From the IMG/VR virus record IMGVR_UViG_3300027734_000042: a DNA stretch of 64,000 nucleotides; one strand, written 5' to 3'. Shown in pieces: positions 36,125 to 62,940 of this stretch. This DNA comes from a virus. The position numbers and the translations under genes were made by a program. The notes beneath the pieces were generated by a model. It searched no databases. It was not told the DNA's origin and saw only the letters and a program-made list of their open reading frames with translations. Numbering within the stretch: the first letter of the stretch is position 1; each line of letters opens with the position of its first letter.

Positions 36125-36650
36125 ATTCTACATTTTATTCCATATAAAAAATATATTAGAACAAGGGCTTGAACCTATTATAATTAAATATAAAGATAAT
36201 CTTATTGAAGCTGATTCGTTTGAAATTGAAAAAAATATGATAGAATTAATAGGTAGAAAAGATTTATCTAGAGGTCCTTTAAGGAATTTAAGCAACGGGG
36301 GAGAAGGAAATGGCGAAAGAAAATTTACAGATGAACACAGGAAGAATATAAGTATTTCAAAAAAAGGAATAGTTACTGAAAAAATTAGAGAAAATCTTAA
36401 AGGAATACATAAAAGAATGCTGGGAAATCAAAGAACCCTTGGTTTTAAATTTTCAGAGGAGAGTAAAAAAAAATTGGTGGAATCTCATTATAAGCCTGTT
36501 TTTCAGATAGGATTAGATGGTGAAATATTAAATGAGTTTCCCTCTATAAAAGATGCTGAGTCTTACATTGGGGTATCAATTAAAAAAGTACTTAGAGGTG
36601 GCGGAAAAACTGCTGGGGGATTTCTCTGGAAGTATAAAAATAATTACTAG
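36123..36650 (+). pseudogene. 5'-truncated GIY-YIG-type homing endonuclease with NUMOD3- and NUMOD1-like DNA-binding domains
   Basis: The frame of ORF 36237 is open upstream (IKNILEQGLEPIIIKYKDNLIEADSFEIEKNMIELIGRKDLSRGPLRNLSNGGEG) but has no ATG or GIY/YIG strands before the stop at 36084; FTDEHRKNIS and FSEESKKKL (NUMOD3-like); KPVFQIGLDGEILNEFPSIKDAE...KTAGGFLWKY (NUMOD1-like). Confidence 0.7.
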
Positions 36651-38200: not shown

Positions 38201-38208
38201 GATATATA
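38201..38208 (+). promoter_or_regulatory. putative late promoter (GATATATA)
   Basis: Intergenic, 21 nt before ATG 38230. Confidence 0.6.
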
Positions 38209-38229: not shown

Positions 38230-38829
38230 ATGAAAAATATTAAAGATTACGAAAGATTTTGTCTTAATGAAGCGGAAGAAATAATGTGGTCTAGGCATCT
38301 TGGAAACAATGCCAATAGTTACGAGGATAGAGCTAAAAATTATTATAATTTGTCTAGCAACCCAAGTATACTTTCTAAAGCACAGAATTTCTTCCAGAAA
38401 ATGGAGGATAGAATTAACAATATGGCTAGAGTAGGTAAAGGACTTGCTCAACAAAATAGATCTGGTAGAACTGGTGATTTAGATACTGGATACGAAAATC
38501 TATTTGGGCTTGTTTCTGTTGTTCCTAGCGTTCTTAAAAGAGTATTTGGACCAACTAAGTTTGAGGTAGCTAAAAGTGCACCAGCAAATGATAGCGAGGT
38601 CAATCTTGAATTCATGAGACACACTAATGAGGATTTTGCTAAGAGTGAACTTCCTAATATTAGATCAGAAAAACAATTAGAAGACAATATCGCTGACCTT
38701 TATCAAAAAGGTGAAGTTAAAAAAGGTGAAGTACCTGTTCTTGATGATATAGCAATGAATAGAATCAATCTATATTACACGAGGCAAGAAACGCCAAACC
38801 AGCCAATATTCCAACCAAATAATCTATAA
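38230..38829 (+). CDS. hypothetical protein with CTS-like N-terminal tag (candidate internal head protein)
   Basis: Starts MKNIKDYERFCLNE; preceded by GATATATA. Confidence 0.7.
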   Translation: MKNIKDYERFCLNEAEEIMWSRHLGNNANSYEDRAKNYYNLSSNPSILSKAQNFFQKMEDRINNMARVGKGLAQQNRSGRTGDLDTGYENLFGLVSVVPSVLKRVFGPTKFEVAKSAPANDSEVNLEFMRHTNEDFAKSELPNIRSEKQLEDNIADLYQKGEVKKGEVPVLDDIAMNRINLYYTRQETPNQPIFQPNNL

Positions 38830-38831
38830 AA

Positions 38832-39575
38832 ATGAAAAAATTCTCTTCAATAGTAGAAAAGAAAAAACAAGAATTACACGAAAATCAAGTAATCAACGAG
38901 AGAAATCTTTATCTCGACTTTGCAAAGAAATACCATAAAAAACAGGGTGTATCTGGACCTTTCGATAAAAAATTCCAAGGTGATAAAAAAGCTCAGGAAG
39001 AATATATGGAAGGCCTAGGTAAAGCTTGGGCAGAGCACAAGGAAAAGAAAGGTATCAAAAATAAGTCTGAAAAGGGTAAGTTCGATTTTGCTAAGAAAAA
39101 AATGAACGAATCTAAGGCTTTTGATATGGCTAAGCAAATGATAGGTGACGGTGGAGATCCTAACTATCACTTCGTTACAATGTGTGACGACTATCTTTTT
39201 GAAAAAGATGGAGAAATGATAAGATACAGCAAAGATATGATGTCTGCGCCGCTTAAAATCAAAACTACACCTACTTTAGGAGCTTATACATTCGGGCCTT
39301 TTATGAATATTGAAGAATCTAAAATGTTTGCTGCTAGCATAGAGCTAGACGAGATCAATGGACCTAGAATGGTTACTATTGAGGACAGAAAAACAGGTGA
39401 GGTTTTCAGTAAGTATTTAACTTGCAAACTTCAACCAGTTTGGGATGAGCACGAAGAGGAAAGCTTTGAATCTATGGAAGATTCAGATGATGAAGAATTT
39501 GAAGATCCTAGTGCAGAATACACATACGGTGAAGAGACTGAAGACGAAGAAACAGAAGACGGAGAGGAAGAATAA
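38832..39575 (+). CDS. hypothetical protein with multiple hydrophobic-x-E sites and acidic tail (candidate internal head protein)
   Basis: MKKFSSIVE start; LHE, INE and MNE sites; D/E-rich C-terminus. Confidence 0.65.
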   Translation: MKKFSSIVEKKKQELHENQVINERNLYLDFAKKYHKKQGVSGPFDKKFQGDKKAQEEYMEGLGKAWAEHKEKKGIKNKSEKGKFDFAKKKMNESKAFDMAKQMIGDGGDPNYHFVTMCDDYLFEKDGEMIRYSKDMMSAPLKIKTTPTLGAYTFGPFMNIEESKMFAASIELDEINGPRMVTIEDRKTGEVFSKYLTCKLQPVWDEHEEESFESMEDSDDEEFEDPSAEYTYGEETEDEETEDGEEE

Positions 39576-39578
39576 AAA

Positions 39579-40022
39579 ATGCTAACCCATTCACAAAGTC
39601 AAGCACTCTATCCTGTACTACAACACTACACAGGAACTAAGATAGTTTCTATCTCTGATAGAGGAGATGAACTTATCTTTAGCAATTCTTGGGGTCAATC
39701 AGGATTATTAGTTGAAGATAATAATGGGGATTGGGAAATAATAATAGGACAGGAATTAGTTGATCGGATTGAAAAAGATGTCTTTGAAGCTTTAGTTAAG
39801 CCTAGAGTAAAAAGCAACATTGAGGAATATATTAAGATTTTAGAACATTTAACTAATGATTCAAATGTAAGTTACAGATCTAAAGTTTTAGTTTCTCAGA
39901 TACTTGGTATACTAGAAGAATTTATTTTAAATTCTAATTTTTTACCCAAGAAAGAAATAAAGTTTGGGCCTTTTTGGATTTTTAACTATAAAGGAAATAA
40001 GTTTATAAACTCATTAAATTAA
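39579..40022 (+). CDS. hypothetical protein
   Basis: 147-aa ORF tightly packed between neighbours. Confidence 0.65.
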   Translation: MLTHSQSQALYPVLQHYTGTKIVSISDRGDELIFSNSWGQSGLLVEDNNGDWEIIIGQELVDRIEKDVFEALVKPRVKSNIEEYIKILEHLTNDSNVSYRSKVLVSQILGILEEFILNSNFLPKKEIKFGPFWIFNYKGNKFINSLN

Positions 40023-40023
40023 A

Positions 40024-47616: not shown

Positions 47617-48087
47617 ATGGAAGAAAAACTAGACGAAGATTGCGGATGTGGGGGAACCACAGATAGCATTAGAAGTTTTACCAATGCTTCTGCATCTAGA
47701 TATGATCAGGATCCTTTAGTGGGAATAAGAGTAAACTTGGTAGACGGAAGATCTGGTAAGGTCGATGATTCTATTAGAAATAATACTGGTGAAGTTATTG
47801 GGTATGTAATAGAGGGAGATAGGGGAACATATAGAGTATTTAAAAATAAAATTGCTGGACCTATTAGTGAAGGAGAAGGTGCAATGGCTTCTTTAACAGC
47901 TACACCGGGGATGGGAAATGTTATACCTCCTGGACCAGGGAGAACAGGATCGGGTGATCAATTTCCTTCATTAGAAGTTGGTACACCGGCTGCTAGAAAG
48001 AAAAAGAAGAAGAAAGATAACAACCCTACAGATACTTCTTTAATGGACTTTAAAACGTTCCTTAGCAGAGGCAAGGGTAACCAATAA
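47617..48087 (+). CDS. hypothetical protein with small beta-barrel (SH3-like) core
   Basis: VGIRVNLVDGRSGKV...YVIEGDRGTYRVFKNKI; LDE and ISE sites; C-terminal LMDFKTFLS. Confidence 0.6.
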   Translation: MEEKLDEDCGCGGTTDSIRSFTNASASRYDQDPLVGIRVNLVDGRSGKVDDSIRNNTGEVIGYVIEGDRGTYRVFKNKIAGPISEGEGAMASLTATPGMGNVIPPGPGRTGSGDQFPSLEVGTPAARKKKKKKDNNPTDTSLMDFKTFLSRGKGNQ

Positions 48088-48163
48088 GAATCGTTTTCTT
48101 ATTAATTCTAAAAATTTTACAAAATCTAATTAAACTTCTGTGGAAATTTCTTAATTTAGCTTT

Positions 48164-48547
48164 GTGCAAAAATTAAATATAATACAAGAAGAATACAAAG
48201 ATGATCCTTGGAAGGTTCTAGTCTGTTGTATATTATTAAATCAGACCAACAACCGTCAGGTTAGACCTCTGATCTCACATTTCTTTAAAACGTGGCCTAA
48301 TCCAGCATCTATTATTAGAGAAAATCCTATTAATATAAGTGCATTCATTAAGAGTACTGGATTTCAAAATATAAAGGCTCACAGGATTAGGGAATTCTCT
48401 ATAGCATGGGAGATAGGTATAAGAGATCCTAAGAAATTCCCAGGAGTAGGAGAATACGGTAGAGAAGCATGGAGAATATTTGTAGAAGAAGATCTGGATT
48501 TTACGCCGAAGGATAAGAAGCTAAAAATGTATTTGGATTGTATGTAG
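48164..48547 (+). CDS. MBD4-like HhH-GPD DNA glycosylase (minimal catalytic domain)
   Basis: IQEEYKDDPWKVLVCCILLNQT, FPGVGEYGREAWRIF (HhH) and PKDKKL (position of the catalytic Asp); GTG start uncertain. Confidence 0.75.
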   Translation: MQKLNIIQEEYKDDPWKVLVCCILLNQTNNRQVRPLISHFFKTWPNPASIIRENPINISAFIKSTGFQNIKAHRIREFSIAWEIGIRDPKKFPGVGEYGREAWRIFVEEDLDFTPKDKKLKMYLDCM

Positions 48548-48555
48548 AATATATA
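48548..48555 (+). promoter_or_regulatory. putative late promoter (AATATATA)
   Basis: Fills the 12-nt gap before ATG 48560. Confidence 0.55.
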
Positions 48556-48559
48556 CTAC

Positions 48560-49156
48560 ATGAATCATTTACTAAGGTTTGAAAATTACAAACCAATATA
48601 CGAGAAAATCCAGCCAATCACAGCTAATTGGTTTATAATTGATAGTGAGGGTTCTTTTGAGAAGAAAGAACAATCAGGTTTTTTCGTATTTAATCGTGTT
48701 GGTACTTTCTCGATAATCTATAATAAAAAAGCTTCTGATTCGGAAGAGGCAAGAATAGATTTTTATACATCCAAAGAAAATTCTAAGGACAAAAAAACAA
48801 TCTGTGAATGTAAGATACTAACAAAAAGTGGAGAAGAAAGAACTGTTAGGAGGTTTACTGATATTACCCCAGACAATATTTGGGAGATCGTCACATCATT
48901 CTTTGATTATTGTGATTTAGAGAAATCTGAAAAAGAGGTAACTGATAGATTCTTATTAGGATTTTCTAAAAGTTTAAAAGAGGTTCTAAAATACGAAAGC
49001 AGTGATCAGTTACCCTCAGCATTTAAAACATTCTATAAATTCATTTCTGAATGGGCTAAGAAATCTGATACTAAGATAGAGATTAAAGCTACTAACAACA
49101 ACTACGAACTTTTAGAATTAATTAGGAAATTCATGGACAACTTCAAAAAAGTCTAA
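48560..49156 (+). CDS. hypothetical protein with CTS-like tag
   Basis: Starts MNHLLRFENYKPIYE. Confidence 0.7.
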   Translation: MNHLLRFENYKPIYEKIQPITANWFIIDSEGSFEKKEQSGFFVFNRVGTFSIIYNKKASDSEEARIDFYTSKENSKDKKTICECKILTKSGEERTVRRFTDITPDNIWEIVTSFFDYCDLEKSEKEVTDRFLLGFSKSLKEVLKYESSDQLPSAFKTFYKFISEWAKKSDTKIEIKATNNNYELLELIRKFMDNFKKV

Positions 49157-49458
49157 GCTGATTCTCTCTTTTTTAATTGTGACAGGAAATCCTTCCAAAC
49201 AACTAATCCTTCTTTAATTCCTGCTTTAGGGAATTTGTGAAATTCTGCACGGTGCGACATTATATAAGAAGCTATTATTGCATCTTTAAGTTCTATTTCT
49301 TTCTTATCTAACATCTCCTGTAATCTTCTTACAGATTTTAATGCTTCCTCTCTATTAGAAAACCTTAATCCTCTTGGATATTTTGAATCATTGGAGAAAG
49401 GTTTAATGTCATTAAGATAAACCTGTTCGAAAAGTTTAAAGGTTAGAATTTTTTTCAC
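49153..49458 (-). CDS. hypothetical helical protein with CTS-like tag
   Basis: GTG start, MKKILTFKLFEQVYLND; own AATATATA motif on the minus strand; convergent stop overlap with ORF 48560. Confidence 0.7.
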   Translation of the reverse strand: MKKILTFKLFEQVYLNDIKPFSNDSKYPRGLRFSNREEALKSVRRLQEMLDKKEIELKDAIIASYIMSHRAEFHKFPKAGIKEGLVVWKDFLSQLKKRESA

Positions 49459-49462
49459 ATAG

Positions 49463-49470
49463 TATATATT
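49463..49470 (-). promoter_or_regulatory. putative late promoter (AATATATA, minus strand)
   Basis: Plus-strand tatatatt, 4 nt from the GTG at 49458; orientation follows the gene. Confidence 0.55.
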
Positions 49471-49487
49471 CTTTACCTAAATAAATC

Positions 49488-49516
49488 GAAACCTCTTAGT
49501 TGTATTAGTGTAAGAT
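49488..49516 (+). promoter_or_regulatory. putative middle-type promoter GAAAC-N18-TAAGAT
   Basis: Bipartite motif ending 6 nt before the polymerase ATG. Confidence 0.45.
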
Positions 49517-49522
49517 AAGAGT

Positions 49523-50929
49523 ATGATTATTGATATAGAAAATTCAGGTACATCTTTAGTTGTCTCCCATTATACAGAGGAAGGGGACGTAAATTTGTTA
49601 AAACTACAAGTTCCTAAAGCGCTTCAATTCGTCTGGCAAAAAACATCTGCTAGCGATAGATCGAAAGATTCAGAATGGACAACATGGGACGGATTTCCTG
49701 TTAAAAAATCTTCTACATATAAGTTTGATAAGTATAGAGTAGTAGAAATTTTAGAAGCACTAGATCCTGAATTAACCAAGCCTCTTTGGGATTACCAGAC
49801 GCCTAAAAAATACTTCGTCGATATTGAGGTGGAGATGACAGATAACAGAGCAGATTCATTAGACACAGAGAATTCTAAGAATAGAATTCTTTCCATAGGA
49901 ATGGCTTCTTCTCAAGGTAAGGTTCTTGTTATAGGTCTGGAGGATATGAGTCCTGATAGGATATTAAAGATCGAGAAAAGGATTAATGATCATTTTGAAG
50001 GACAAAATGGGGATTGGACTTTTAATTACAGAAAGTTTGAAAGTGAGTTTGATATGCTCTACACTTTTCTTTCTAAATTAGTTCCTAAGATGCCTTTGAT
50101 AACTGGGTGGAATTGGTTTGGTTATGACTGGCCTTATATTATAAACAGAGCTAAGAGATTAGGTATAGATCCTAAGATTGCTTCACCTAGTGGGGTACTT
50201 ATAGGAAAGCATCAAATACCTATGCACGTTTTAATGGTCGATTACCTTGACATTTATAAGAAGTGGGATAGGGTAGTAAAAATCAGAGAGTCTAACTCAT
50301 TAGATTATGTTTCCAATCAAGCTATAGGGATTAAAAAGATTGCTTATAATGGAACATTAAAAGATTTATACGAGTCAGACTTTGAAACGTTCATATTTTA
50401 TAACGCAGTTGACTGTGCTCTTGTACACTATATAGATAAAAGACTTGATACACTTTCTACTTTCTTTAAAATCGCAGAAGTAAGTAGAGTGGAGATCAAT
50501 AGAGCATTATCTCCAGTTTGGACTACTGAGGTTCTTATGCTAAGAAAATTCTTAGAAAGAAAACAGGTAATTGTAAATGAAAGGAAAGAGGAAAATCATG
50601 TTAAATTCGAAGGAGCTTATGTTAAGAAGCCAGAAAAAGGATTATATGAATGGATCGCTTGTTTTGACTTTGCTTCTCTTTATCCTAATACAATGATGCA
50701 ATGGGGTATATCCCCTGAGGTTTATATAGGTAAGAATCTTAAGAACATACCCGAAGGTGCAATTAAAACTTCGTCAGGAGCGGTATTTTATAGTAAGGAA
50801 GGAAGAGAACCTATATTAAGAGAAATATTAAAAGGACTTTACGGGCAAAGAAAAGCAACAAAGAAGAAATATTTCGAATGTGAAAAAGAAATAGAGAAAA
50901 TACAAAAAGTAATTAAAGAAAAATCATAA
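49523..50929 (+). CDS. gp43: family B DNA polymerase, N-terminal subunit (exonuclease + motif A; gp43A-like)
   Basis: ExoI VDIEV, ExoII GWNWFGYDWPYI, ExoIII YNAVD, FEGAYVKKP and motif A FDFASLYP; ends in the fingers helix (QRKATKKK) with no KxxxNSxYG or YGDTDS. Confidence 0.88.
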   Translation: MIIDIENSGTSLVVSHYTEEGDVNLLKLQVPKALQFVWQKTSASDRSKDSEWTTWDGFPVKKSSTYKFDKYRVVEILEALDPELTKPLWDYQTPKKYFVDIEVEMTDNRADSLDTENSKNRILSIGMASSQGKVLVIGLEDMSPDRILKIEKRINDHFEGQNGDWTFNYRKFESEFDMLYTFLSKLVPKMPLITGWNWFGYDWPYIINRAKRLGIDPKIASPSGVLIGKHQIPMHVLMVDYLDIYKKWDRVVKIRESNSLDYVSNQAIGIKKIAYNGTLKDLYESDFETFIFYNAVDCALVHYIDKRLDTLSTFFKIAEVSRVEINRALSPVWTTEVLMLRKFLERKQVIVNERKEENHVKFEGAYVKKPEKGLYEWIACFDFASLYPNTMMQWGISPEVYIGKNLKNIPEGAIKTSSGAVFYSKEGREPILREILKGLYGQRKATKKKYFECEKEIEKIQKVIKEKS

Positions 50930-50932
50930 ATT

Positions 50933-51397
50933 ATGGCAAACACAGACAACAAATGTGCGGATCTTCCAGTTGAAGATTTCCACACTGGGGTAAACGATAC
51001 CCTCGGCTTGATTTACAATAAGCAAGCAGAATTACAATCAAGATACGGATTTGATTTTAAGGATTGGACCTTGAAACAAATTGCAGATTTTTGGATGGTT
51101 AACAAACATGCACTAAGTGATGAGTTAAACGAAATGTTTGATGCTCTTGGAGGTGTTAATGATGGTATTGGATCTGCAGGATGGAAATACTGGAAAGGAG
51201 ACAATAAGAAAGCTTCTGAAATGAAGATCTCTGACCTTAGTGAAAATGATAGATTGGAGTTATTCTATGAATGGATTGACGGATTACATTTCTTTATGAA
51301 CTTCGGTATTTCTATGGGAATGACAAGTAAGGATATTGTTAATCTTTATATGGCAAAAAATGCTGAAAATCATGACAGGCAGGAGAGAGGATATTAA
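50933..51397 (+). CDS. all-alpha dimeric dUTPase / gp56-like dCTP pyrophosphatase
   Basis: DELNEM, WKYWK, ELFYEWIDGLHFFMN and YMAKNAENHDRQERGY. Confidence 0.8.
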   Translation: MANTDNKCADLPVEDFHTGVNDTLGLIYNKQAELQSRYGFDFKDWTLKQIADFWMVNKHALSDELNEMFDALGGVNDGIGSAGWKYWKGDNKKASEMKISDLSENDRLELFYEWIDGLHFFMNFGISMGMTSKDIVNLYMAKNAENHDRQERGY

Positions 51398-51418
51398 TAT
51401 ATAGATGACCCAATCATT

Positions 51419-51607
51419 ATGAGCAATATAAAATTTTACACTAATAGACAAATAGCACTACAAATGGCTATGAAGTTACATAAGGAAGGATCAATAACAA
51501 AAAGCGAGATAACAAAAAATGCCGATGAGTTTTATGCTTGGCTTCAGGATGCTCCACAGAAAGATTCAGATAATAAAGAATGGTTGAAAATTAACGAAAT
51601 TAAATAA
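51419..51607 (+). CDS. small hypothetical protein
   Basis: 62 aa with RQIALQMA...ADEFYAWL helical pattern; AATATATA upstream at 51396-51403. Confidence 0.6.
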   Translation: MSNIKFYTNRQIALQMAMKLHKEGSITKSEITKNADEFYAWLQDAPQKDSDNKEWLKINEIK

Positions 51608-51621
51608 TATAAATAATTAAG

Positions 51622-52602
51622 ATGGAAAAGTTACTCACCCCGAATCCTAGAAGATTCTCTTTATTCCCTGTACAACAAGACGATATTTGGACAATGTACA
51701 AAACAGCGGAAGCTTCTTTTTGGACAGCGGAGGAAATAGATTTAGCACAGGATATCACTCACTGGAGAGATAAATTAAACGACAACGAGAGATATTTTAT
51801 AAAGAATGTAATTGCTTTCTTTAATAACTCCGATGGGATAGTTAATGAGAATCTTGCAGCTAATTTTTTCAATCAGGTACAATACCCGGAAGCTAGATGC
51901 TTTTATGGATTCCAATTGGCTATTGAGAATATACACGGTGAGGTTTATTCTCTTCTTATAGATTCTTACATATCTGACGAGGAAGAGAAAGAGAATTTAT
52001 TTAATGCTATTGATACTGTCCCTGCGGTTAAAAGAAAAGCAGATTGGGCAATGAAATGGATCGAGAATGGATCATTCACTGAGAATATGATTGCATTTGC
52101 TGCTGTTGAAGGTATTTTCTTTTCCGGATCTTTCTGTTCTATATTTTGGTTAAAGAAAAGAGGATTAATGCCAGGTCTTTGCTTTGCTAATGAATTAATT
52201 TCTAGAGACGAAGGATTACATTGCGATTTTGCTTGTTTACTTTACACTCAGCACATTGAAAATAAACTTCCGGAGGAAACAGTGAAAGAGATTATTATGG
52301 AAGCTGTAGAGATCGAAAAGGAGTTTGTAACTTCATCTTTGCCTGTTAGACTTATTGGTATGAACTCTGAGCTTATGTGTGAATATATCGAATTTGTAGC
52401 AGATAGGCTTTTAACTTCTTTAGGATGCTCAAGAGTTTATAATACTAAATGCCCTTTTGATTTTATGATAAATATTGCTTTAGAAAATAAAGGTAATTTC
52501 TTCGAAGGAAGAGTGGGATCATATCAGAAATCGGGTGTTATGGACAGTACTAAAGATAACGGAAATAGCGGAAAAACTTTTTCAATGGATGCTGATTTTT
52601 AA
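51622..52602 (+). CDS. nrdB: ribonucleotide reductase class Ia beta subunit
   Basis: [43 protein letters not shown] and NFFEGRV..Y motifs. Confidence 0.97.
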
Positions 52603-52625
52603 TTAGGAAGATCATATTAACCATT

Positions 52626-54805
<2,180 letters not shown>

Positions 54806-54806
54806 T

Positions 54807-54971
54807 ATGTACGATCACGTATACGAAATAACTGGCTATCAGATAGAAATCGAAGGAGTCATAGAGAATCGTCAAAGAATTCAATATTGGAATAACGAAA
54901 CCGATTATCTAATTGAGGAATACTACGGAACAACCGAAGAAATACGCCTCGGTTATACACAGATTCAATAA
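54807..54971 (+). CDS. small acidic protein, possible fibre chaperone/accessory; absent from the ORF track
   Basis: Translated by hand, 54 aa: MYDHVYEITGYQIEIEGVIENRQRIQYWNNETDYLIEEYYGTTEEIRLGYTQIQ; starts 1 nt after the fibre stop. Confidence 0.6.
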   Translation: MYDHVYEITGYQIEIEGVIENRQRIQYWNNETDYLIEEYYGTTEEIRLGYTQIQ

Positions 54972-55001
54972 AACAAAGTGGAATAAATATTCTTATTAGT
55001 G

Positions 55002-55029
55002 GAAACTAATGGGTTAATTTTTCTATAAT
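55002..55029 (+). promoter_or_regulatory. putative middle-type promoter GAAAC-N17-TATAAT
   Basis: Intergenic, ends 28 nt before the nrdA ATG. Confidence 0.55.
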
Positions 55030-55057
55030 TTTTCACATAAAATAAAATAAAATAATA

Positions 55058-57427
55058 ATGGAAGTAACAAAGAGAGACGGAGCTAAAGAAAGAGTTAAGC
55101 TTGATAAAATTTTAAATCGTGTTAAGAAACAATCTTATGGTTTAAATATGGATTATATTGAGCCAATGGAAATTGCAAAGAAAGTTATTCATGGTTTATA
55201 TGATGGTATCTCTTCAGTAGAACTTGATACTTTAGCAGCAGAAACAGCAGCTGCTTTAACCCCAACCCATCCTGATTATTCTATTTTAGCTTCTAGAATT
55301 TGTGTTACCTCGTTACATAAAAGAACACCTAAAAGTTTTTCGAGTGTGATTGATCAGCTTTATAATTATGTTGATCCTAAGACAGGTTTAAAAGCTCCAA
55401 TGATTGCTGATGATGTATACGAGATTATTGTTAATAATGCTAAGGATATAGATTCACAAATTATTGCAGATAGGGATTTAGATTATGATTATTTTGGTTT
55501 TAAGACTTTAGAAAAATCATATCTTTTAAAGATTGATGGTTTACCTGCTGAAAGACCACAGCAAATGTTAATGAGAGTTGCTATTGGTATACACAAGGAA
55601 GATTTAGCCTCTGCTTATAAAACATATGACTTAATGAGTCAGGGTTACTTCACGCATGCTACACCTACTTTATTTAATGCGGGTACTAGAAGACCCCAGC
55701 TTTCTTCTTGCTTCTTAGTTTCAATGGATGATGATTCAATTCAAGGTATCTATAAAACACTATCTGATGTGGCTCAGATCTCTAAAAATGCAGGAGGTAT
55801 TGGTTTACATATACATAATGTAAGAGGCACAGGAGCTTATATTAGAGGAACAAACGGAACCTCAAACGGAATTATTCCGATGCTAAAAGTATTTAACGAA
55901 ACTGCAAGATACGTCGATCAAGGTGGAGGTAGAAGAAAGGGATCTTTTGCTGTTTATTTGGAGCCTTGGCATTGTGATGTTGAAGACTTTTTAAATCTTA
56001 GAAAAAATCACGGTAAAGAGGAGATGAGAGCTAGGGATCTTTTCTTAGCTTTATGGACACCGGATTTATTTATGGAAAGAGTTAAGGAAGATGGAGAATG
56101 GACTTTATTCTCTCCTGATGAAGCACCAGGATTAGACGACGTATACGGTGAGGACTTTGTTAAACTTTATACTAAATATGAAGCTGAAGGAAGAGGAAGA
56201 AAAACAATTAAAGCTCAAGAGCTTTGGTATAAAATAATTGAAGCACAGATCGAAACTGGAACTCCTTATATGCTTTATAAGGATGCAGCTAATATAAAAT
56301 CAAATCAGAAGAATTTAGGTACTATTAAGTCATCTAATCTTTGTACTGAGATTATGGAGTATTCAGATTCAAAAGAAACTGCAGTTTGTAATTTAGCTTC
56401 TATTGCATTACCTAAATTCATTATTCCTGGTAAGAAACCTAAATACGATCTTAATGCTCTTAAGGATATAGCTTACACAGCAACTATCAATCTTAATAGA
56501 GTGATTGATGTTAACTATTATCCTACTAAGGAAACTAAGACCTCTAATATGAAGCACAGACCAATTGGTATTGGAGTTCAAGGTTTAGCTGATACATTTG
56601 CTATTCTAAAAATACCTTTTGAATCGGAAGAAGCAAAAAATTTAGATAGAGACATTTTCGAAGCAATTTATTACGGAGCTATGTGTGCTTCAGTGGATCT
56701 TGCAGAAAAAGAAGGTGCATACCAAACATTTAAGGGATCGCCATTATCTAAAGGATTATTTCAATTTGATTTATGGAACGAATCACCTAGTACAAGATGG
56801 GAATGGGAAGAATTAAGAGAAAGAGTTAAGACTTTCGGAGCTAGAAATTCTTTATTGCTTGCTCCTATGCCTACTGCTTCTACAAGTCAGATCTTAGGAA
56901 ACAATGAATGTTTTGAACCTTTCACTTCTAACATTTACATTAGAAAAACATTATCTGGAGAATTTCCAGTAGTTAATAAGCATCTTGTTAAAGACTTAGT
57001 TAAACTTAATATGTGGGATGATAATCTTAGGGATAAGATCATTATTAATAATGGATCAGTACAAGATATTGCTGAAATACCAGATGAGATTAAGATCATT
57101 TATAAGACTGCTTGGGAGATGAGTCAGAAGATTATTATAGATCATGCTGCAGCTAGAGCACCTTTTATATGTCAAAGTCAAAGTATGAATTTATTTGTTC
57201 AAGATGCTAACTTTGCTAAACTTTCTTCAGCTCATTTTTATGGATGGGATAAGGGATTAAAGACTGGAAGTTATTATATAAGAACTAAAGCTGCTACAAC
57301 AGCTATAAAAGGTCTAGGTATAGATCTAAGCAGAAATCAAGAACTTCCTAAATCAGAGGATGATAACTATAGCGACTTAACTTGTAGCATAGACAATCCT
57401 GAAGATTGCGAAGCTTGCGGTTCATAA
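55058..57427 (+). CDS. nrdA: ribonucleotide reductase class Ia alpha subunit with ATP-cone
   Basis: VTKRDG ATP cone, [43 protein letters not shown] and C-terminal CEACGS. Confidence 0.98.
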
Positions 57428-57440
57428 ATAATAACCAATA

Positions 57441-58034
57441 ATGAAAATCAAAAATTTTAAAGAGTTTGACTCCTTGAGCACACCCTGTGTAATTTTTGTA
57501 GGACCTCCTGGATGTGGTAAAGGAACACAAGCAGAAATACTTTGTAAGAAAACACATCTGAAACATGTTTCTACTGGTGATATCCTTAGAAAATCTGATG
57601 ATAAAGAGGTTAAAGAATTAATGAAAACTGGTAAGCTTCTTCCTGATGATTTAGTATCTAAGGAGCTTGAAAAATTCATACAAAAAAATAAAAAATCTGC
57701 AGGATTTGTTTTTGATGGATATCCAAGAAACCTTAAGCAAAAAACTTTATTGGACAAAATAATGTCTAATAATAACCTAGAGACAATCAACATTTTCTTT
57801 CTAGATGTACCAGAAGAGACTTTAAAAGAAAGAATTAAAGAGCGAGGGAAAACATCAGGAAGAGCCGATGATAATGATCCCGAAGTTTTTAAAGTTAGAA
57901 TGGGAGAATATAAAGATCAGACACTACCTCTGATTAAATCTATGAAGAAGCTAAAAAACTTTTTAGAAATATCCGGGGAGAAAGACCTTGATGAGGTTAC
58001 TGAGATTATATTTGATAATCTGGGTGAAATTTAA
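57441..58034 (+). CDS. adk: adenylate kinase (short-LID type) with CTS-like N-terminal extension
   Basis: GPPGCGKGTQA, HVSTGDILR, GKLLPD, FDGYPRN and GRADD; extra MKIKNFKEFDS before the first strand. Confidence 0.93.
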   Translation: MKIKNFKEFDSLSTPCVIFVGPPGCGKGTQAEILCKKTHLKHVSTGDILRKSDDKEVKELMKTGKLLPDDLVSKELEKFIQKNKKSAGFVFDGYPRNLKQKTLLDKIMSNNNLETINIFFLDVPEETLKERIKERGKTSGRADDNDPEVFKVRMGEYKDQTLPLIKSMKKLKNFLEISGEKDLDEVTEIIFDNLGEI

Positions 58035-58054
58035 TCCAATTTTTTATCTATAAA
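58026..58054 (+). promoter_or_regulatory. putative middle-type promoter GAAAT-N18-TATAAA
   Basis: Bipartite motif ending 17 nt before the GT ATG. Confidence 0.45.
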
Positions 58055-58071
58055 TGTTAAATTGAAATAAC

Positions 58072-59328
58072 ATGCCAAAATTAGTAATTGAAAAAACAGA
58101 TGCTAAACAGCCTTCTATATGTTTAGTTATGATTGTTAAAAATGAATCTAAAGTAATCAGAAGATGTATTGATTCCGTTAAGGATTACATTAACTATTGG
58201 GTTATTGTTGATACAGGATCTACCGATGGTACTCAGGATCTTATTAAGGAGATAATGAATGAGTATGAAATTCAAGGTGAACTACATGAAAGACCTTGGG
58301 TAGATTTTGGATACAACAGAACTGAGAGTTTAGAATATTCTGAGGGCAAGGCAGATTATAGATTAGTTATAGATGCTGACGACTTTCTATCTGTACAGGA
58401 GGGAGAAAATCCTTTTCTAAATTTGACAGAGGATGCTTATAAGATTAGGATTCGACTTAATTCATTGGCTTATTACAGAACTCAATTGGTTAGAGGTGAT
58501 CAGAAATGGAAATATGTAGGTGTTTTACATGAATATATTTCAGGTCCAACTGATATCAAAGTATCTGAAGAATTCTTAGAAGGCGTTGAAATGCACGCTT
58601 CTGTTTCTGGACACAATAGAGATATTAAAGGAAAGGATAAGTATTATAATGATGCTTTAATTTTCGAAAAAGCTATTCTAACAACACCTAAGGAAGAACT
58701 TCCTATTGATCTGGAAAGAAGATATGTTTTCTATATGGCTCAAAGTTATAGAGATGCAGGAATGAATGAAAGATCTATTGAAGCTTATCAAAGAAGAGTA
58801 GATCTAGGAGGATGGGCGGAAGAGGTTTACATTTCTAGATATTGGATAGCTAGACAAAAACAAATTCTAGAAAGACCTGACGAAGATATCATTGATGCTT
58901 ATTTAAAAGCTTGGGAATACAGACCTAATCGTTTAGAATCCCTTTATCATCTTATTAAGTTCTTAGGAACAAGAAAAAGATATGCTTTAGGTTTTGCTTT
59001 ATCGTCAATCGGAATGAAAACTGGACCTTGCTCAGATATTCTTTTTGTAGAAGATGATATCTGGAAATGGAGAATGCCTGATGAGTATTCTGTACTAGCA
59101 TATTACAATGGAAATGCAGAAGAAGCTTATAAAACAACCAACATTATCATAAATTCTAGCTTGTTTGCTGGCATTAATAAGTCAGATCAGGAAAGAATTA
59201 TGAAAAATATGGATTTCTATAGTAAAGCTTTAGAACCTAACGAGGAAGAACAACCTGAAGCTATAGAAGAATCTATTCCTGAAGTTATTGACGAATCTAT
59301 TAAAAATGAGGAATTGAAAGAATCTTGA
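58072..59328 (+). CDS. GT2-family glycosyltransferase with TPR-like C-terminal repeats
   Basis: ICLVMIVKNE, VDTGSTDGT, DFGYNR, IDADD and GVLHEY; RYVFYMAQSYRD and AWEYRPNRLESLY TPR-like helices. Confidence 0.88.
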   Translation: MPKLVIEKTDAKQPSICLVMIVKNESKVIRRCIDSVKDYINYWVIVDTGSTDGTQDLIKEIMNEYEIQGELHERPWVDFGYNRTESLEYSEGKADYRLVIDADDFLSVQEGENPFLNLTEDAYKIRIRLNSLAYYRTQLVRGDQKWKYVGVLHEYISGPTDIKVSEEFLEGVEMHASVSGHNRDIKGKDKYYNDALIFEKAILTTPKEELPIDLERRYVFYMAQSYRDAGMNERSIEAYQRRVDLGGWAEEVYISRYWIARQKQILERPDEDIIDAYLKAWEYRPNRLESLYHLIKFLGTRKRYALGFALSSIGMKTGPCSDILFVEDDIWKWRMPDEYSVLAYYNGNAEEAYKTTNIIINSSLFAGINKSDQERIMKNMDFYSKALEPNEEEQPEAIEESIPEVIDESIKNEELKES

Positions 59329-59336
59329 GATATATA
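59329..59336 (+). promoter_or_regulatory. putative late promoter (GATATATA)
   Basis: Directly after the GT stop, 16 nt before ATG 59353. Confidence 0.6.
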
Positions 59337-59352
59337 AATAAAAATTATATCA

Positions 59353-59835
59353 ATGCAGATTTTAAGATTTTCCGACTTCATTAATGAACAGTCTGTTTAT
59401 AACGTTGGAGTTCCTATTTTTAAAGGAACAGCGATAAACCCAGAAAAAACCGTAAAAAGAAATAAGCTTTTACCTGAGTTACAAGATTACTTATCTCAGC
59501 TAATGAGTGGACAGCTTACAGAGGTTACATTAGTTGCTGAAATTCCTACACAAGGAAAAAATGCGCCTCAATACCTTAAAGATATCTATTCTGAAATGGG
59601 ATACGATGCTTCTAAAGAAGAAGATATGTATGACGACGAAACAGATACTTTTTTAGGTAACAGAGATAGAATGCCAGATGATCCTAGTACAAATATCTTT
59701 GTTGATTCTGAATTCATCGTTAAGGATGTGGACATGGAAAGAAATGTAATTCTAGCTATTCCGTATTCAATGAAGAGAAAAGGAATTATAGTAGAAATTG
59801 CACCAGAAATGGTAGAAGAAGTTTTTATTAAGTAA
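59353..59835 (+). CDS. hypothetical protein with CTS-like tag
   Basis: Starts MQILRFSDFINEQ. Confidence 0.7.
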   Translation: MQILRFSDFINEQSVYNVGVPIFKGTAINPEKTVKRNKLLPELQDYLSQLMSGQLTEVTLVAEIPTQGKNAPQYLKDIYSEMGYDASKEEDMYDDETDTFLGNRDRMPDDPSTNIFVDSEFIVKDVDMERNVILAIPYSMKRKGIIVEIAPEMVEEVFIK

Positions 59836-60200
59836 TGAATTTTAACCAGGAGGAAGATTTTTATTTAGCTAAGATAGGTGAACACACATTTGTTTTAGAA
59901 GAATGCAAAGATTTTCCTAAAGGACTTTCACATAGAGAGCATCTCCACGAAAACGAGGGGATGCTTTTTAATTTTAATGATCCCGGCGACAGAACTTTCC
60001 ATATGAGGGATTGCTTAATACCACTAGATATACTTTTTATAAAAGACGGGAAAGTAAACAAAATATATCACGAATGTCAGCCTTGCGAAATTAACGAATG
60101 CGACAAATACATAGGTGAGGCAGATTCAGTAGTTGAACTACTAGGGGGTACTTGCAAGAAGAATAATATTAGCGAAGGTCTAATATACAGGCACTTTTAA
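59835..60200 (+). CDS. DUF192 family protein
   Basis: GLSHRE...EGMLFNF...FHMRDCLIPLDILFI...VVELLGG. Confidence 0.85.
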   Translation: MNFNQEEDFYLAKIGEHTFVLEECKDFPKGLSHREHLHENEGMLFNFNDPGDRTFHMRDCLIPLDILFIKDGKVNKIYHECQPCEINECDKYIGEADSVVELLGGTCKKNNISEGLIYRHF

Positions 60201-60233
60201 GAAACTTTTCACAGTTTTCTATCTTAAATTTTT

Positions 60234-60407
60234 ATGACCAGAAAGGCAAAGATCAAACTTCCTAATGAATCTTATTGGGATGAATTGGCTATAAATATGG
60301 ACGATTTCATAATTTCTAGAGAATTTGAATATGAAGTTTTTGGCTGGTATAAAGGAATGTACGTTTCAATTTTAAAAAAATCACTAGAGGAAAATGACGG
60401 CGAATAA
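60234..60407 (+). CDS. small hypothetical protein; absent from the ORF track
   Basis: Translated by hand, 57 aa: MTRKAKIKLPNESYWDELAINMDDFIISREFEYEVFGWYKGMYVSILKKSLEENDGE; overlaps the topoisomerase start; GAAACTTTT upstream at 60201. Confidence 0.55.
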   Translation: MTRKAKIKLPNESYWDELAINMDDFIISREFEYEVFGWYKGMYVSILKKSLEENDGE

Positions 60408-62181
60408 GGAGATTAAGGTTTTATCAGAAAGAGAGCATATACTTTTAAGACCAACAGTTTATGTTGGTAGTGTTAAACCAACTGATGAAAAGGTTCCTAT
60501 AATACGCGAGAACAAGATTTTCGTTGAGTCTAGGACGATTTCAGTGGGAATGTATAAACTATTCGATGAAGTCTTTTCTAACTCATTAGACGAAGCTAAA
60601 CGCATGAAAGGAAAGATGAAAACTATCCTTATTGATGTTGACAGTAAAAGTAATTCTGTATCTATTAGCGACAGTGGTAACGGATTCTATAAAGGTACTG
60701 ATATCAACAAAGTTAGTGGAAAGACAAACATAGAAACAGCAGTATCACAATTGAGAGCTGGATCTAATTTTGAAAATGACGACATCCAGGAATCTTTAGT
60801 TGGTACCAACGGAATGGGTGTAAGTTTGGTTAACGTTCTTTCCAAGTATTTTAGTATAGAAACTATTAATGATAAATTCTACTATTTTCAGGAATGGAAG
60901 AATTACGAGGGTAAGGAAGCAAAGATATCCAAGAAAAAAGGTGAAGATAAAACAGGAACTAAAGTTACTTTCGCTCCTTTGTCCGAAGTCTTCGGATATT
61001 CTAAATGGGATAAGGAGGTTCTTTCTTCTATCCTTATTCTAAAGTATGATCTAATTAAAAGAGATCCGATACTGAGTAATCTAGAAATTAAATTTAGTTG
61101 GGATGGAGAAATTGTTGATCTTCAACCTAAATTTTTACCTGAAGATTGTTTCAAGATAAACACAGACATAGGACAAATAACTATTTGGGAAAAATACGAG
61201 GGATCAGGATCATTAAGCTTTGTGAACTCAGCTCTTTGTTCCGGTATACACCAGAAGATATTTAATGATTTTGTTAATACTAAACTTGAAGACACATTGG
61301 GACATCACTTTTACGATTGCCTCATTGTATTAAATCTACCTCCTAAATATGTCAAATTTGGGGATCAAAATAAAACTAGATTCGTAACAACCAGGGAAGA
61401 GATCGAAAGTCTTTTAATGGGCAAGTTTGGATCCAAATTACAAGGATTTTTTAAGACCGACCTTTATTCAAGAGTACTTAAAAAGGTAGAGGAAAGAAAA
61501 ACAGATGGATATGTAAAAAAGCTTAGATCTGAAAAAAAGAAAGTAAATCTAAAGCATTCACATAAATATTTTCCCGCACAAAAATCAGTAGCAGAAAATC
61601 TTTTTATTGTTGAAGGATTATCAGCAATGGGATCTATATTACAAAAGAGGAATCCAAAAGAAGACGGGGTTTACGCTTTAAAAGGAAAGATAAAAAATTG
61701 TAAGAACATAGGAGATCTTTCAGAGAATAAAGAAATTCTAGAGCTAATGCACATACTAGGTTTAGATCCCACATCTAGAAATACAGATATAGTTGGATAT
61801 AAAAAAATAGTAATTGCAACAGATCCGGATCCGGATGGATCTCACATTACCTCTTTACTTATCAATCTATTTTATAAATGGTTCCCAACTATAGTAAAGC
61901 ATAAAAGATTAAGCTCTTTAAAAATTCCTCTAGTATCTGTAGGTGACGGAAAGAAAAGAAAGTATTTCTGGGATTTGGATGAATTTAAAGCAGCAAGACC
62001 TACAGGAAACATCAGATACCTAAAAGGATTGGGTTCATTATCTTTAGAAGATTGGGAATGGGTAATGGGGGATAAGGAGCTAACTAACATAGAGGAAAGT
62101 TTAGATAGCAAGGATAAATTAGAAATGGCTTTTGGTGATTCTGCTGACGCAAGAAAAAAATGGTTATCAAATGGTAATTAG
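60394..62181 (+). CDS. type IIA topoisomerase large subunit (ATPase + TOPRIM; T4 gp39+gp60 / GyrB-like)
   Basis: EHILLRPTVYVGS, EVFSNSLDE, DSGNG, GTNGMGVSLVN, IVEGLSA, LKGKIKN, TDPDPDGSHI and YLKGLGS. Confidence 0.93.
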   Translation: MTANKEIKVLSEREHILLRPTVYVGSVKPTDEKVPIIRENKIFVESRTISVGMYKLFDEVFSNSLDEAKRMKGKMKTILIDVDSKSNSVSISDSGNGFYKGTDINKVSGKTNIETAVSQLRAGSNFENDDIQESLVGTNGMGVSLVNVLSKYFSIETINDKFYYFQEWKNYEGKEAKISKKKGEDKTGTKVTFAPLSEVFGYSKWDKEVLSSILILKYDLIKRDPILSNLEIKFSWDGEIVDLQPKFLPEDCFKINTDIGQITIWEKYEGSGSLSFVNSALCSGIHQKIFNDFVNTKLEDTLGHHFYDCLIVLNLPPKYVKFGDQNKTRFVTTREEIESLLMGKFGSKLQGFFKTDLYSRVLKKVEERKTDGYVKKLRSEKKKVNLKHSHKYFPAQKSVAENLFIVEGLSAMGSILQKRNPKEDGVYALKGKIKNCKNIGDLSENKEILELMHILGLDPTSRNTDIVGYKKIVIATDPDPDGSHITSLLINLFYKWFPTIVKHKRLSSLKIPLVSVGDGKKRKYFWDLDEFKAARPTGNIRYLKGLGSLSLEDWEWVMGDKELTNIEESLDSKDKLEMAFGDSADARKKWLSNGN

Positions 62182-62188
62182 ATATATA
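62181..62188 (+). promoter_or_regulatory. putative late promoter (GATATATA)
   Basis: Overlaps the topoisomerase stop, 5 nt before ATG 62194. Confidence 0.6.
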
Positions 62189-62193
62189 CTTTA

Positions 62194-62940
62194 ATGATTT
62201 TACGATTAAATAACTTTATAGTCGAGCAAGCTTCGGATAATTCTGATAGCCAAGCTAAGACTCCTGTAAAAAATTATTCAGGTAAGTTAAAGATTAATTG
62301 GGAAAAACCTGATCTTGCTGAGGAGATTCATCATTACGATGATAAAGCTAAACTTGAATTTTATCAACACAACATAACTATTGGTAATAAAGATATAGGA
62401 AAGACTAGTTCAAGAGCAACTAAGTTTTATAAATATATTATAGAGCCATTTAGAAAAGGCCACATAGAAGATCTTCCTATAGTTTCAGATAATAAGTTAG
62501 ACGTAAATAGCATTCAGAACCTTATGGTTTATGAATATGATAATATAGTTACAGGAGCATACGGTAGATCATACGGAGATGTATTAATCAAAATATCAGA
62601 TGATCTTAAAAAGAAAGGTAGTTTAGATCTGCCTTTACCTATAATTATTAAATTCATCAACTTCGGAGAAACTAGAACATCTTCAGAAGATAGCTACTAT
62701 CTTTTTTCCGGTAACAGAATCATAAATTTAGCACTTCAATACAATATTCCAATTAAAGCATGGGTTATTGATTTAGTACCTTCTAGAAGAGACGTAAGAG
62801 AATTTGCTCAGAAGTCTGGAGCCACTACTGATCCTGATAAATTTAAGAAAATCTTAAAAAGAGCAACGGGTAAAGATAATCTAGATGATCTAAATGCTAG
62901 AGAAAGATTCAAAATCATCCAATCACTTAAGAATTTTTAA
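62194..62940 (+). CDS. hypothetical protein with CTS-like tag and possible ParB/Srx-like domain
   Basis: Starts MILRLNNFIVEQ; LPLPIIIK...YYLFSGNRIINLAL..NIPIKAWVID resembles a degenerate ParB/Srx motif. Confidence 0.55.
   Translation: MILRLNNFIVEQASDNSDSQAKTPVKNYSGKLKINWEKPDLAEEIHHYDDKAKLEFYQHNITIGNKDIGKTSSRATKFYKYIIEPFRKGHIEDLPIVSDNKLDVNSIQNLMVYEYDNIVTGAYGRSYGDVLIKISDDLKKKGSLDLPLPIIIKFINFGETRTSSEDSYYLFSGNRIINLALQYNIPIKAWVIDLVPSRRDVREFAQKSGATTDPDKFKKILKRATGKDNLDDLNARERFKIIQSLKNF

Follow-up and report, generated by a model that had tools for sequence, protein, structure and literature searches.

Why should a series of otherwise unrelated proteins encoded by one phage begin with nearly the same short peptide? 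The question is raised by positions 38,230 to 62,940 of a 64,000-nucleotide stretch of viral DNA (the window), which is the minus strand of part of IMG/VR record IMGVR_UViG_3300027734_000042, a linear viral contig of 129,821 bp with a CheckV completeness of 47%. An earlier note on this DNA had listed twelve such leaders on open reading frames (ORFs) of this region and had proposed that they form a portable tag resembling the capsid targeting sequence (CTS) of phage T4, by which proteins would be loaded into the prohead. All twelve leaders read as described, and the consensus of the tag, M-K-x-I-K-x-F-x-E-F-[ILV]-N-E, spans 13 residues and is found on about one gene in eight of the contig. Judged from sequence comparison, the leader is likely to be this lineage's expanded version of the capsid targeting and processing tag known from T4, by which dozens of unrelated proteins would probably enter the capsid.

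The source phage is an uncultivated T4-like jumbo phage. Its contig has a GC content of 32-35% and encodes a myovirus tail and baseplate module, a ribonucleotide reductase, a topoisomerase and a T4-style replication block comprising SSB, a primase, a UvsY-like protein and a helicase, and its virion proteins show similarity to counterparts in Lak megaphages, the huge phage LR756500.1, Sphingomonas phage PAU and jumbo phages of Tenacibaculum, Flavobacterium and Chryseobacterium. Head genes are not found in this 47%-complete fragment of 129,821 bp (0 Peptidase_S77 or Gp23 matches), because it represents about half a genome. Two related contigs therefore carry part of the comparison: G001, an IMG/VR contig of 248,191 bp and 85% completeness whose 1171-aa tail protein is 93% identical to that of the source contig and in which the tagged genes are present with their order kept, and G003, a 148-kb contig with about 78% identity in the same protein.

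The tag was searched with a hidden Markov model (HMM) built from 27 leaders of the source contig and G003 (consensus MkkIlsFneFinEs), with ORFs scoring 8 bits or more counted as tagged; G001 and LR756500.1 are outside the training set. At this cut-off 20/162 ORFs of the source contig are tagged where 0.4 false matches are expected, and the corresponding counts are 38/343 in G001 (0.7 expected) and 35/542 in LR756500.1 (1.8 expected). About 16 further tagged ORFs lie on the source contig downstream of the window. The regular expression [ILVM]xx[FYW]xx[FYW], applied to the first 16 residues, matches the N-termini of 26 of the 162 ORFs compared with 1.9-2.6% of internal windows, and shuffling of the same N-terminal residues yields 4.6 +/- 1.9 matches and never more than 11 in 1000 repeats, so that the motif is not as common on shuffled N-termini as on the real ones. 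When the full-length proteins of the contig are scanned (40,880 residues), 16 matches are N-terminal and one is internal. The earlier note had seen no such leader on replication or tail genes, which is borne out at 8 bits or more by 0/6 ORFs of the replication block and 0/22 tail and baseplate ORFs of the source contig, and extends to the early block with 0/39.

The leaders are shared by proteins that have nothing else in common. The bodies of the tagged proteins, which the earlier note had called unrelated, show no BLASTP similarity to one another beyond the leader, which rules out paralogy as the origin of the shared N-termini, and when 138 tagged proteins of four lineages are aligned, the consensus is MKxIKxFxxFxNE with nothing beyond it. 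The codons of the tag vary synonymously (TTT/TTC, GAA/GAG, ATT/ATC/ATA). In a set of 72 metagenomic homologues of the protein encoded at 38230, with identities as low as 45%, every member has I or L at position 4, F or Y at position 7, F at position 10 and I, L or V at position 12; N13 is kept in 64/72 and E14 in 71/72, and an acidic linker prone to insertions and deletions follows E14. Between orthologues of the source contig and G003, identity amounts to 63% in the tag and 56% in the tagged bodies, compared with 64% for the N-termini and 72% for the bodies of untagged proteins. These comparisons indicate that selection is acting at the level of the peptide. An explanation that assigns the leader no function in the protein, and sees in it an AT-rich 5′ codon bias, an initiation signal of nearly leaderless late mRNAs or a recombining cassette of promoter and 5′ end, could draw on the GC content of 32-35%, on the AT-rich codons for K, N, I, F, Y and E, and on the many late-type motifs that end exactly 4 nt before the ATG. 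It is nevertheless highly improbable in view of the 26 matches observed against 4.6 after shuffling, the synonymous codons with conservative F/Y and I/L/V exchanges, the retention of tags on genes without a promoter of their own, and the dialects of other lineages, which change the sequence and keep the spacing. A nucleotide cassette or codon bias as the cause of the tag is largely refuted by the residue shuffling and the synonymous codon variation.

The tagged genes also have a promoter-like motif in common. Within 40 nt upstream of the start codon, [AG]ATATATA precedes exactly 8 of the 12 leaders, as the earlier note had counted, and contig-wide RATATAWA lies upstream of 19/28 tagged and 10/134 untagged ORFs (odds ratio 26, p 3e-11), which is a strong link between tag and motif. 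At least four of the ten untagged ORFs with the motif are tail genes (the gp25-like gene, 13656, 25957 and 29827), and genes of the early block have TATATTAGC or TATATTTG-type motifs instead and no tags. RATATAWA is a putative late promoter. It has a preferred fixed spacing, with exactly 4 nt between its end and the start codon in 23 cases on the source contig and G001 (e.g., 45594-45605, 48548-48559, 49459-49470(-) and 62181-62193), and if it acts like the -10 element of T4 late promoters, the late mRNAs would be leaderless or nearly so. About 22 small ORFs of the early block (window-equivalent positions 101139-121400) each lie behind a near-identical TTCTATATTAGCTAAGTAAACCAATTAAA or TATATTTG-type element, none of them being tagged, and these early elements resemble the Bacteroidota -7 promoter consensus TAnnTTTG.

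The closest known counterpart is the T4 CTS, MKTYQEFIAE (PMC8442874), which the earlier note had quoted correctly. Suppressor analysis of the CTS assigns targeting mainly to residues 4 and 7 and processing to residues 8 and 10, and the gp21 protease cuts after L/I-x-E (PMC9026906). The internal proteins of T-even phages are a diverse set with the CTS alone in common (PMC3012670), so the principle of such a tag is already known. The tag HMM aligns KTYQEFIAE to lsFneFinE in register with 7.4 bits and places the F/Y-x-x-F/Y pair on Y4 and F7 of T4, and most tags end in [ILVF]-x-E, where x is usually N and the next residue mostly S or A. Exchange of the tag Glu for Asp in T4 abolishes processing and leaves targeting intact. 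The CTS of IPI, IPII and IPIII with its gp21 protease and the tag system described here are thus alike in having an N-terminal peptide of 10-15 residues on unrelated proteins, in which two aromatic residues three apart are followed by aliphatic-x-Glu, and in having a gp21-family protease and a gp23-family capsid protein in both lineages; late expression is predicted here from the motif. They differ in scale, as T4 has the CTS on three internal proteins whereas about 20-28 proteins are tagged in the half-genome of the source phage and about 38 in G001, and in the tag itself, which has an N-terminal extension of 3-4 residues (M-K-x-I/L-K) and is found on a cargo that includes enzymes. A further difference, seen in the sequence of G001, is that the protease is fused to the scaffold and that the tag copies a 14-residue scaffold repeat.

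The earlier note had made its proposal dependent on a gp21-like protease, which is encoded in the lineage (G001 and G003) and not found in the 47%-complete source contig. In G001, the first ~190 residues of a 677-aa protein match both Peptidase_S77 (T4 gp21) and Peptidase_S80 (phiKZ type). In the PDB, a profile built from five sequences of this domain has T4 gp21 (5JBL) as its sole match, with an E-value of 7e-8, and invariant His (GELDHP) and Ser (ISSRAAG) columns fall inside the region aligned to 5JBL; a single-sequence phmmer search of the PDB with the G001 protease gives 0 matches. A gp21-type protease is also present in G003. The remainder of the G001 protein is scaffold-like and consists of 14 tandem, phased 14-residue repeats, ISYSEYLAENLDKN, each containing Y-x-x-Y-[LI]-[AG]-E. 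With the tag HMM the repeat reaches 5.7 bits, and its pattern is the pattern of the tag and of the T4 CTS. The next gene encodes a gp23-family capsid protein in which H-S-L-N-E contains the final Glu ahead of the conserved body; both the scaffold repeats and this putative cleavage motif of the capsid protein are found in G001 and G003 and not in the source contig. Alignment to the mature N-terminus of the PAU capsid protein was dropped as a way of placing the G001 cleavage site, as the sites do not align, which leaves only the argument from the last Glu before the body. On both sides of the G001 capsid gene lie small tagged genes, at 23117, 23979, 30327, 31276 and 32464. When the 105-aa tagged protein encoded at 46132 is co-folded with a scaffold segment of six repeats (residues 334-421 of the G001 protein), the score is 0.01, which gives no answer either way.

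As the scaffold repeat and the protease and capsid motifs match the tag, docking would occur by mimicry of the repeat, and removal of the tag would occur by the same cut that dismantles the scaffold. The tag would be a short N-terminal amphipathic peptide, aliphatic-x-x-aromatic-x-x-aromatic-aliphatic-x-Glu, that copies one unit of the scaffold repeat. Tagged proteins would be made late in infection alongside the virion proteins and would dock through the tag into the assembling scaffold core, around which the capsid shell would close. The protease would then cut after the Glu of the tag, as it would in the scaffold repeats and the capsid propeptide, and the freed bodies would remain in the head and exit with the DNA at the next infection. 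Alternatively, the tag could be a cleavage site and nothing else, through which the head protease, or a different protease specific for Glu, would activate or remove late proteins at a set time, with the bodies neither retained nor injected. In favor of this alternative, conservation within the tag is highest at the aliphatic-x-Glu end, and T4 core proteins (e.g., gp22, gp67 and gp68) are for the most part expelled once they have been cut (PMC9026906). It is distinctly unlikely, however, in that proteases of the gp21 type work inside the closed prohead, so that a substrate must enter first, and the aromatic pair, which comprises the targeting residues in T4, is conserved to the same degree as the residues that direct cleavage.

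The tagged genes of the window illustrate the range of proteins that the leader precedes. Of the twelve leaders claimed as tags, nine score 12 bits or more, one is weak and two are doubtful. The ORF at 38230..38829(+) encodes a 199-aa protein with the leader MKNIKDYERFCLNE (21.5 bits) behind the late-promoter-like motif GATATATA at 38201..38208(+); its body is predicted to be all-alpha (AF2 pTM 0.72), and the AF2 model has no Foldseek match in the PDB. The same motif, at 41998..42005(+), precedes a tagged DUF2201_N metallopeptidase-like protein (42020..42718(+), leader MRRILGWSEFKLFE, 20.9 bits) in which the match to Pfam PF13203 (5.8e-21) starts at residue 46, and whose LR756500.1 homologue is likewise tagged with 19.6 bits. 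A third copy (43766..43773(+)) lies upstream of a tagged MoxR-like AAA+ ATPase (43796..45313(+), leader MKRIYNFNEFVNE, 26.0 bits) with an AAA_5 domain at residues 132-284 and a tag that is identical at 12/14 positions in the G003 orthologue. The motif at 45594..45601(+) ends 4 nt ahead of the ATG of a 177-aa tagged ORF (45606..46139(+), leader MKHIKLFEQFLNE, 27.5 bits) for which there is no Pfam or PHROGs family and no usable match in the ESM Atlas. It is followed by a 105-aa tagged ORF at 46132..46449(+) (leader MINKILSYNEFITE, 23.8 bits) and by one of 198 aa at 48560..49156(+) (leader MNHLLRFENYKPIYE, 18.6 bits), the latter with the motif AATATATA at 48548..48555(+) ending 4 nt ahead of its ATG. 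On the opposite strand, AATATATA at 49463..49470(-) ends 4 nt ahead of the start codon of a 101-aa tagged ORF (49153..49458(-), 12.4 bits) that starts with GTG and has the leader (M)KKILTFKLFE, both start codon and leader being kept in G003.

Further downstream, an adenylate kinase at 57441..58034(+) carries the N-terminal extension MKIKNFKEF (14.0 bits). The Pfam ADK match (PF00406) begins at residue 20, which corresponds to profile position 2, so the tag precedes the first strand of the fold as an added segment; the G003 orthologue has INNFKEFVKE and then a longer linker. A 160-aa tagged ORF (59353..59835(+), leader MQILRFSDFINE, 24.5 bits) follows the motif GATATATA at 59329..59336(+). The same motif is present at 62181..62188(+) upstream of the 248-aa ORF at 62194..62940(+), whose leader MILRLNNFIVE scores 5.2 bits only and whose G003 orthologue starts MILRLKDFVSE. 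The two short forms are the doubtful ones, with less than 3 bits each: MKKFSSIVE at 38832..39575(+), where 13/14 N-terminal residues are conserved in G003 yet I7 is replaced by Ala, and MKKFSEIKE at 45317..45589(+). The unrelated ORFs 42020 and 49153..49458(-) share an extended leader, FKLFEQVYL[DN] (42020-42060 and 49420-49458(-)), with synonymous differences in 3/9 codons, which may be the trace of a transfer of the tag between genes. Outside the tagged set, an ORF resembling an HNH or homing endonuclease lies at 36237-36650 between the genes for the UvsY-like protein and the helicase.

Tag-like sequences are also seen at the other end of some proteins. The consecutive ORFs 46978-47247, 47249-47611 and 47617-48087, which have no N-terminal tag, and the tagged ORF 49153-49458(-) have C-termini in which aromatic-x-x-aromatic-aliphatic is followed by basic residues (WKEYIGKK, DYREFISTKK, DFKTFLSRGK and WKDFLSQLKK), and these are kept in G001 and G003. 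Enrichment of the motif at C-termini is not significant by itself, and the motif may be an uncleaved docking variant. For the C-termini of 46978, 47249 and 47617 a model of an N-terminal propeptide does not apply, which would favor a tag that docks to some other late partner, such as a chaperone, a membrane site or an assembly factory, instead of the prohead core, its likeness to the T4 CTS being convergent. The contig encodes a DnaJ-like protein as a candidate chaperone, and the tagged set includes enzymes of cytoplasmic type, as would also be expected of such a partner. This explanation is unlikely, however, as it does not account for a tag that reproduces both the scaffold repeat and the P3-P1 motif of the protease and ends in a near-invariant Glu, nor for the clustering of tagged genes around the head module in G001 and PAU.

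If the tag is a capsid targeting and processing peptide, the tagged proteins are the candidate cargo. Pfam recognizes no family in about 110 of the 138 tagged proteins, and PHROGs likewise gives nothing for most. The families that are recognized include leucine-rich repeat (LRR) proteins (6), DUF2201 metallopeptidase-like proteins (3), and two each of adenylate kinases, homologues of the anti-Thoeris protein Tad3 and OmpA-like peptidoglycan binders, together with single members that are a pentapeptide-repeat protein, a PNK3P, a NUDIX, an Amidase_2 and a zeta-toxin-like protein. The Tad3, pentapeptide-repeat, PNK3P, NUDIX, Amidase_2 and OmpA-like types fit the proposed role as capsid cargo. Tad3 binds and blocks ThsB, the sensor of Thoeris (PMC13728456), and one of the tagged homologues is encoded in G001 at 151569-152354 (E 5e-21); the expectation of the earlier note that anti-defence factors would be found among the tagged proteins has in this tagged Tad3-family protein one concrete case. 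The gene lies in a hypervariable slot, in which G001 has the Tad3-like gene and another tagged gene (151569-152860) and the source contig has two different ORFs (window-equivalent 90915-91780), which suggests a fast-changing cargo island. Two other tagged proteins of the source contig have a second motif. A 466-aa protein (window-equivalent 65482-66882; L003:14496-15896:-) repeats the tag internally at residue 212, KVLSFENFYSLNE, which is kept in G001, and may either have arisen by fusion of two tagged genes or be cut in two. The protein encoded at window-equivalent 79021-79623(-) combines the N-terminal tag MSIKNYPEFKKIQE with a C-terminal G-x-x-IL-x-R-F-G motif.

Related phages use recognizable dialects of the tag. 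In LR756500.1, whose capsid protein is 43% identical, the tag reads MKYIKEYEEFILE or FLNE, and the scaffold has repeats resembling Y-x-x-[YH]-[IVL]-A-E. In the cultivated phage PAU (JQ362498.1), the dialect MKTLSKLYEAKLNE, or MKT[LI][ST][KQ]L[YF]E[AS]KLNE, is found on about 22 ORFs, many of which adjoin the genes for the protease, the scaffold and 'internal capsid proteins' (100248-113735 and elsewhere), and gp154, annotated as an 'internal capsid protein', is itself tagged; the literature search found no paper on this dialect. The mature PAU capsid protein comprises 520 of 585 residues by N-terminal sequencing (PMC5646251), so the cut falls at about residue 65, next to L-M-E. A search of IMG/VR with one exact back-translated tag pattern yields 49 loci on contigs of up to 640 kb, within which 144/628 ORFs are tagged, and arrays contain as many as 12 tagged genes in a run of 25. 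The tag is not universal in the capsid clade of Lak, PAU and PTm1, which is ruled out by PTm1, where 1/309 ORFs exceeds the HMM cut-off with 0.6 false matches expected, and by MaF61, which has neither an S77 match nor a tag. The scaffold repeat of PTm1 differs, FTKELSEGIEKW, and this phage has no tag system.

Other large phages and protein shells offer partial parallels. The giant phages phiKZ, 201phi2-1 and SPN3US (gp175/gp245 proteases) have large capsids that contain internal or ejected proteins by the dozen, much as is proposed here for the source lineage. To our knowledge, the propeptides of these three phages are long and each different, with no single short portable tag. Their proteases are related to gp21 and cut after the Glu of a three-residue motif (PMC9026906), and the protease of G001 also matches their family, Peptidase_S80. 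The motif differs in being small residue-x-Glu in the phiKZ type and aliphatic-x-Glu behind two aromatic residues here. The cargo-loading peptides of encapsulins, whose shells have the HK97 fold, and the encapsulation peptides of bacterial microcompartments are short portable helices that send unrelated cargo into a protein shell, which is the same working principle as that of the proposed tag. There is no homology, and the encapsulin tags differ in being mostly C-terminal, in binding the shell and not a scaffold, and in remaining uncleaved. In a literature search that was not exhaustive, a CTS is described only for T4 and the T-even phages and propeptides for phiKZ and SPN3US, with no description of an expanded tag.

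Several observations weigh against a capsid targeting role of the tag. The evidence for the protease, scaffold and capsid protein is taken from a relative, since the 47%-complete source contig lacks head genes. In the AF2 model of the protein encoded at 38230, the tag lies inside one long helix of low confidence (residues 2-24) and does not form a clearly detached peptide. The aliphatic-x-Glu end is unclear or degenerate in several tags, a minority that includes those of the adenylate kinase at 57441 and of the ORFs at window-equivalent 84231 and 91782. Adenylate kinase, the MoxR ATPase and the DUF2201 peptidase are of housekeeping type and are puzzling as capsid cargo, and we know of no precedent for cargo that makes up 12-16% of the genes. 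PTm1 and MaF61 have related capsid proteins and are untagged, so the tag is not tied to this capsid type as such. The portable, T4 CTS-like tag proposed in the earlier note stands up in silico with respect to its positional determinants, its restriction to N-termini, the late-type promoter and the protease, scaffold and capsid motifs of the relative, and is weakened in that two to three of the twelve leaders are doubtful and the protease evidence is by proxy.

A broader view of the system would hold that any gene gaining about 13 codons becomes capsid cargo. Loading would then be open-ended and would comprise 40-50 proteins, or 10-15% of the proteome including the Tad3 homologues, by co-assembly with the scaffold and delivery with the DNA; lineage-specific dialects of the same system would extend across many uncultivated huge phages and PAU, and the injected proteome could be listed from sequence. 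The chances that this view is correct are about evenly balanced.

If capsid targeting is the function of the tag, the injected proteins would act before any phage gene expression and would be prime candidates for anti-defence and host takeover. Such proteins are difficult to recognize unless the virion proteome is analyzed, and for uncultivated phages virion proteomics is impossible. A tag that can be read from sequence would list the injected proteins across metagenomic huge phages and could also be put to use, being portable, for packing foreign proteins into large capsids. The link between the tag and the scaffold repeat would, in addition, suggest a physical basis for capsid targeting of the T4 type.

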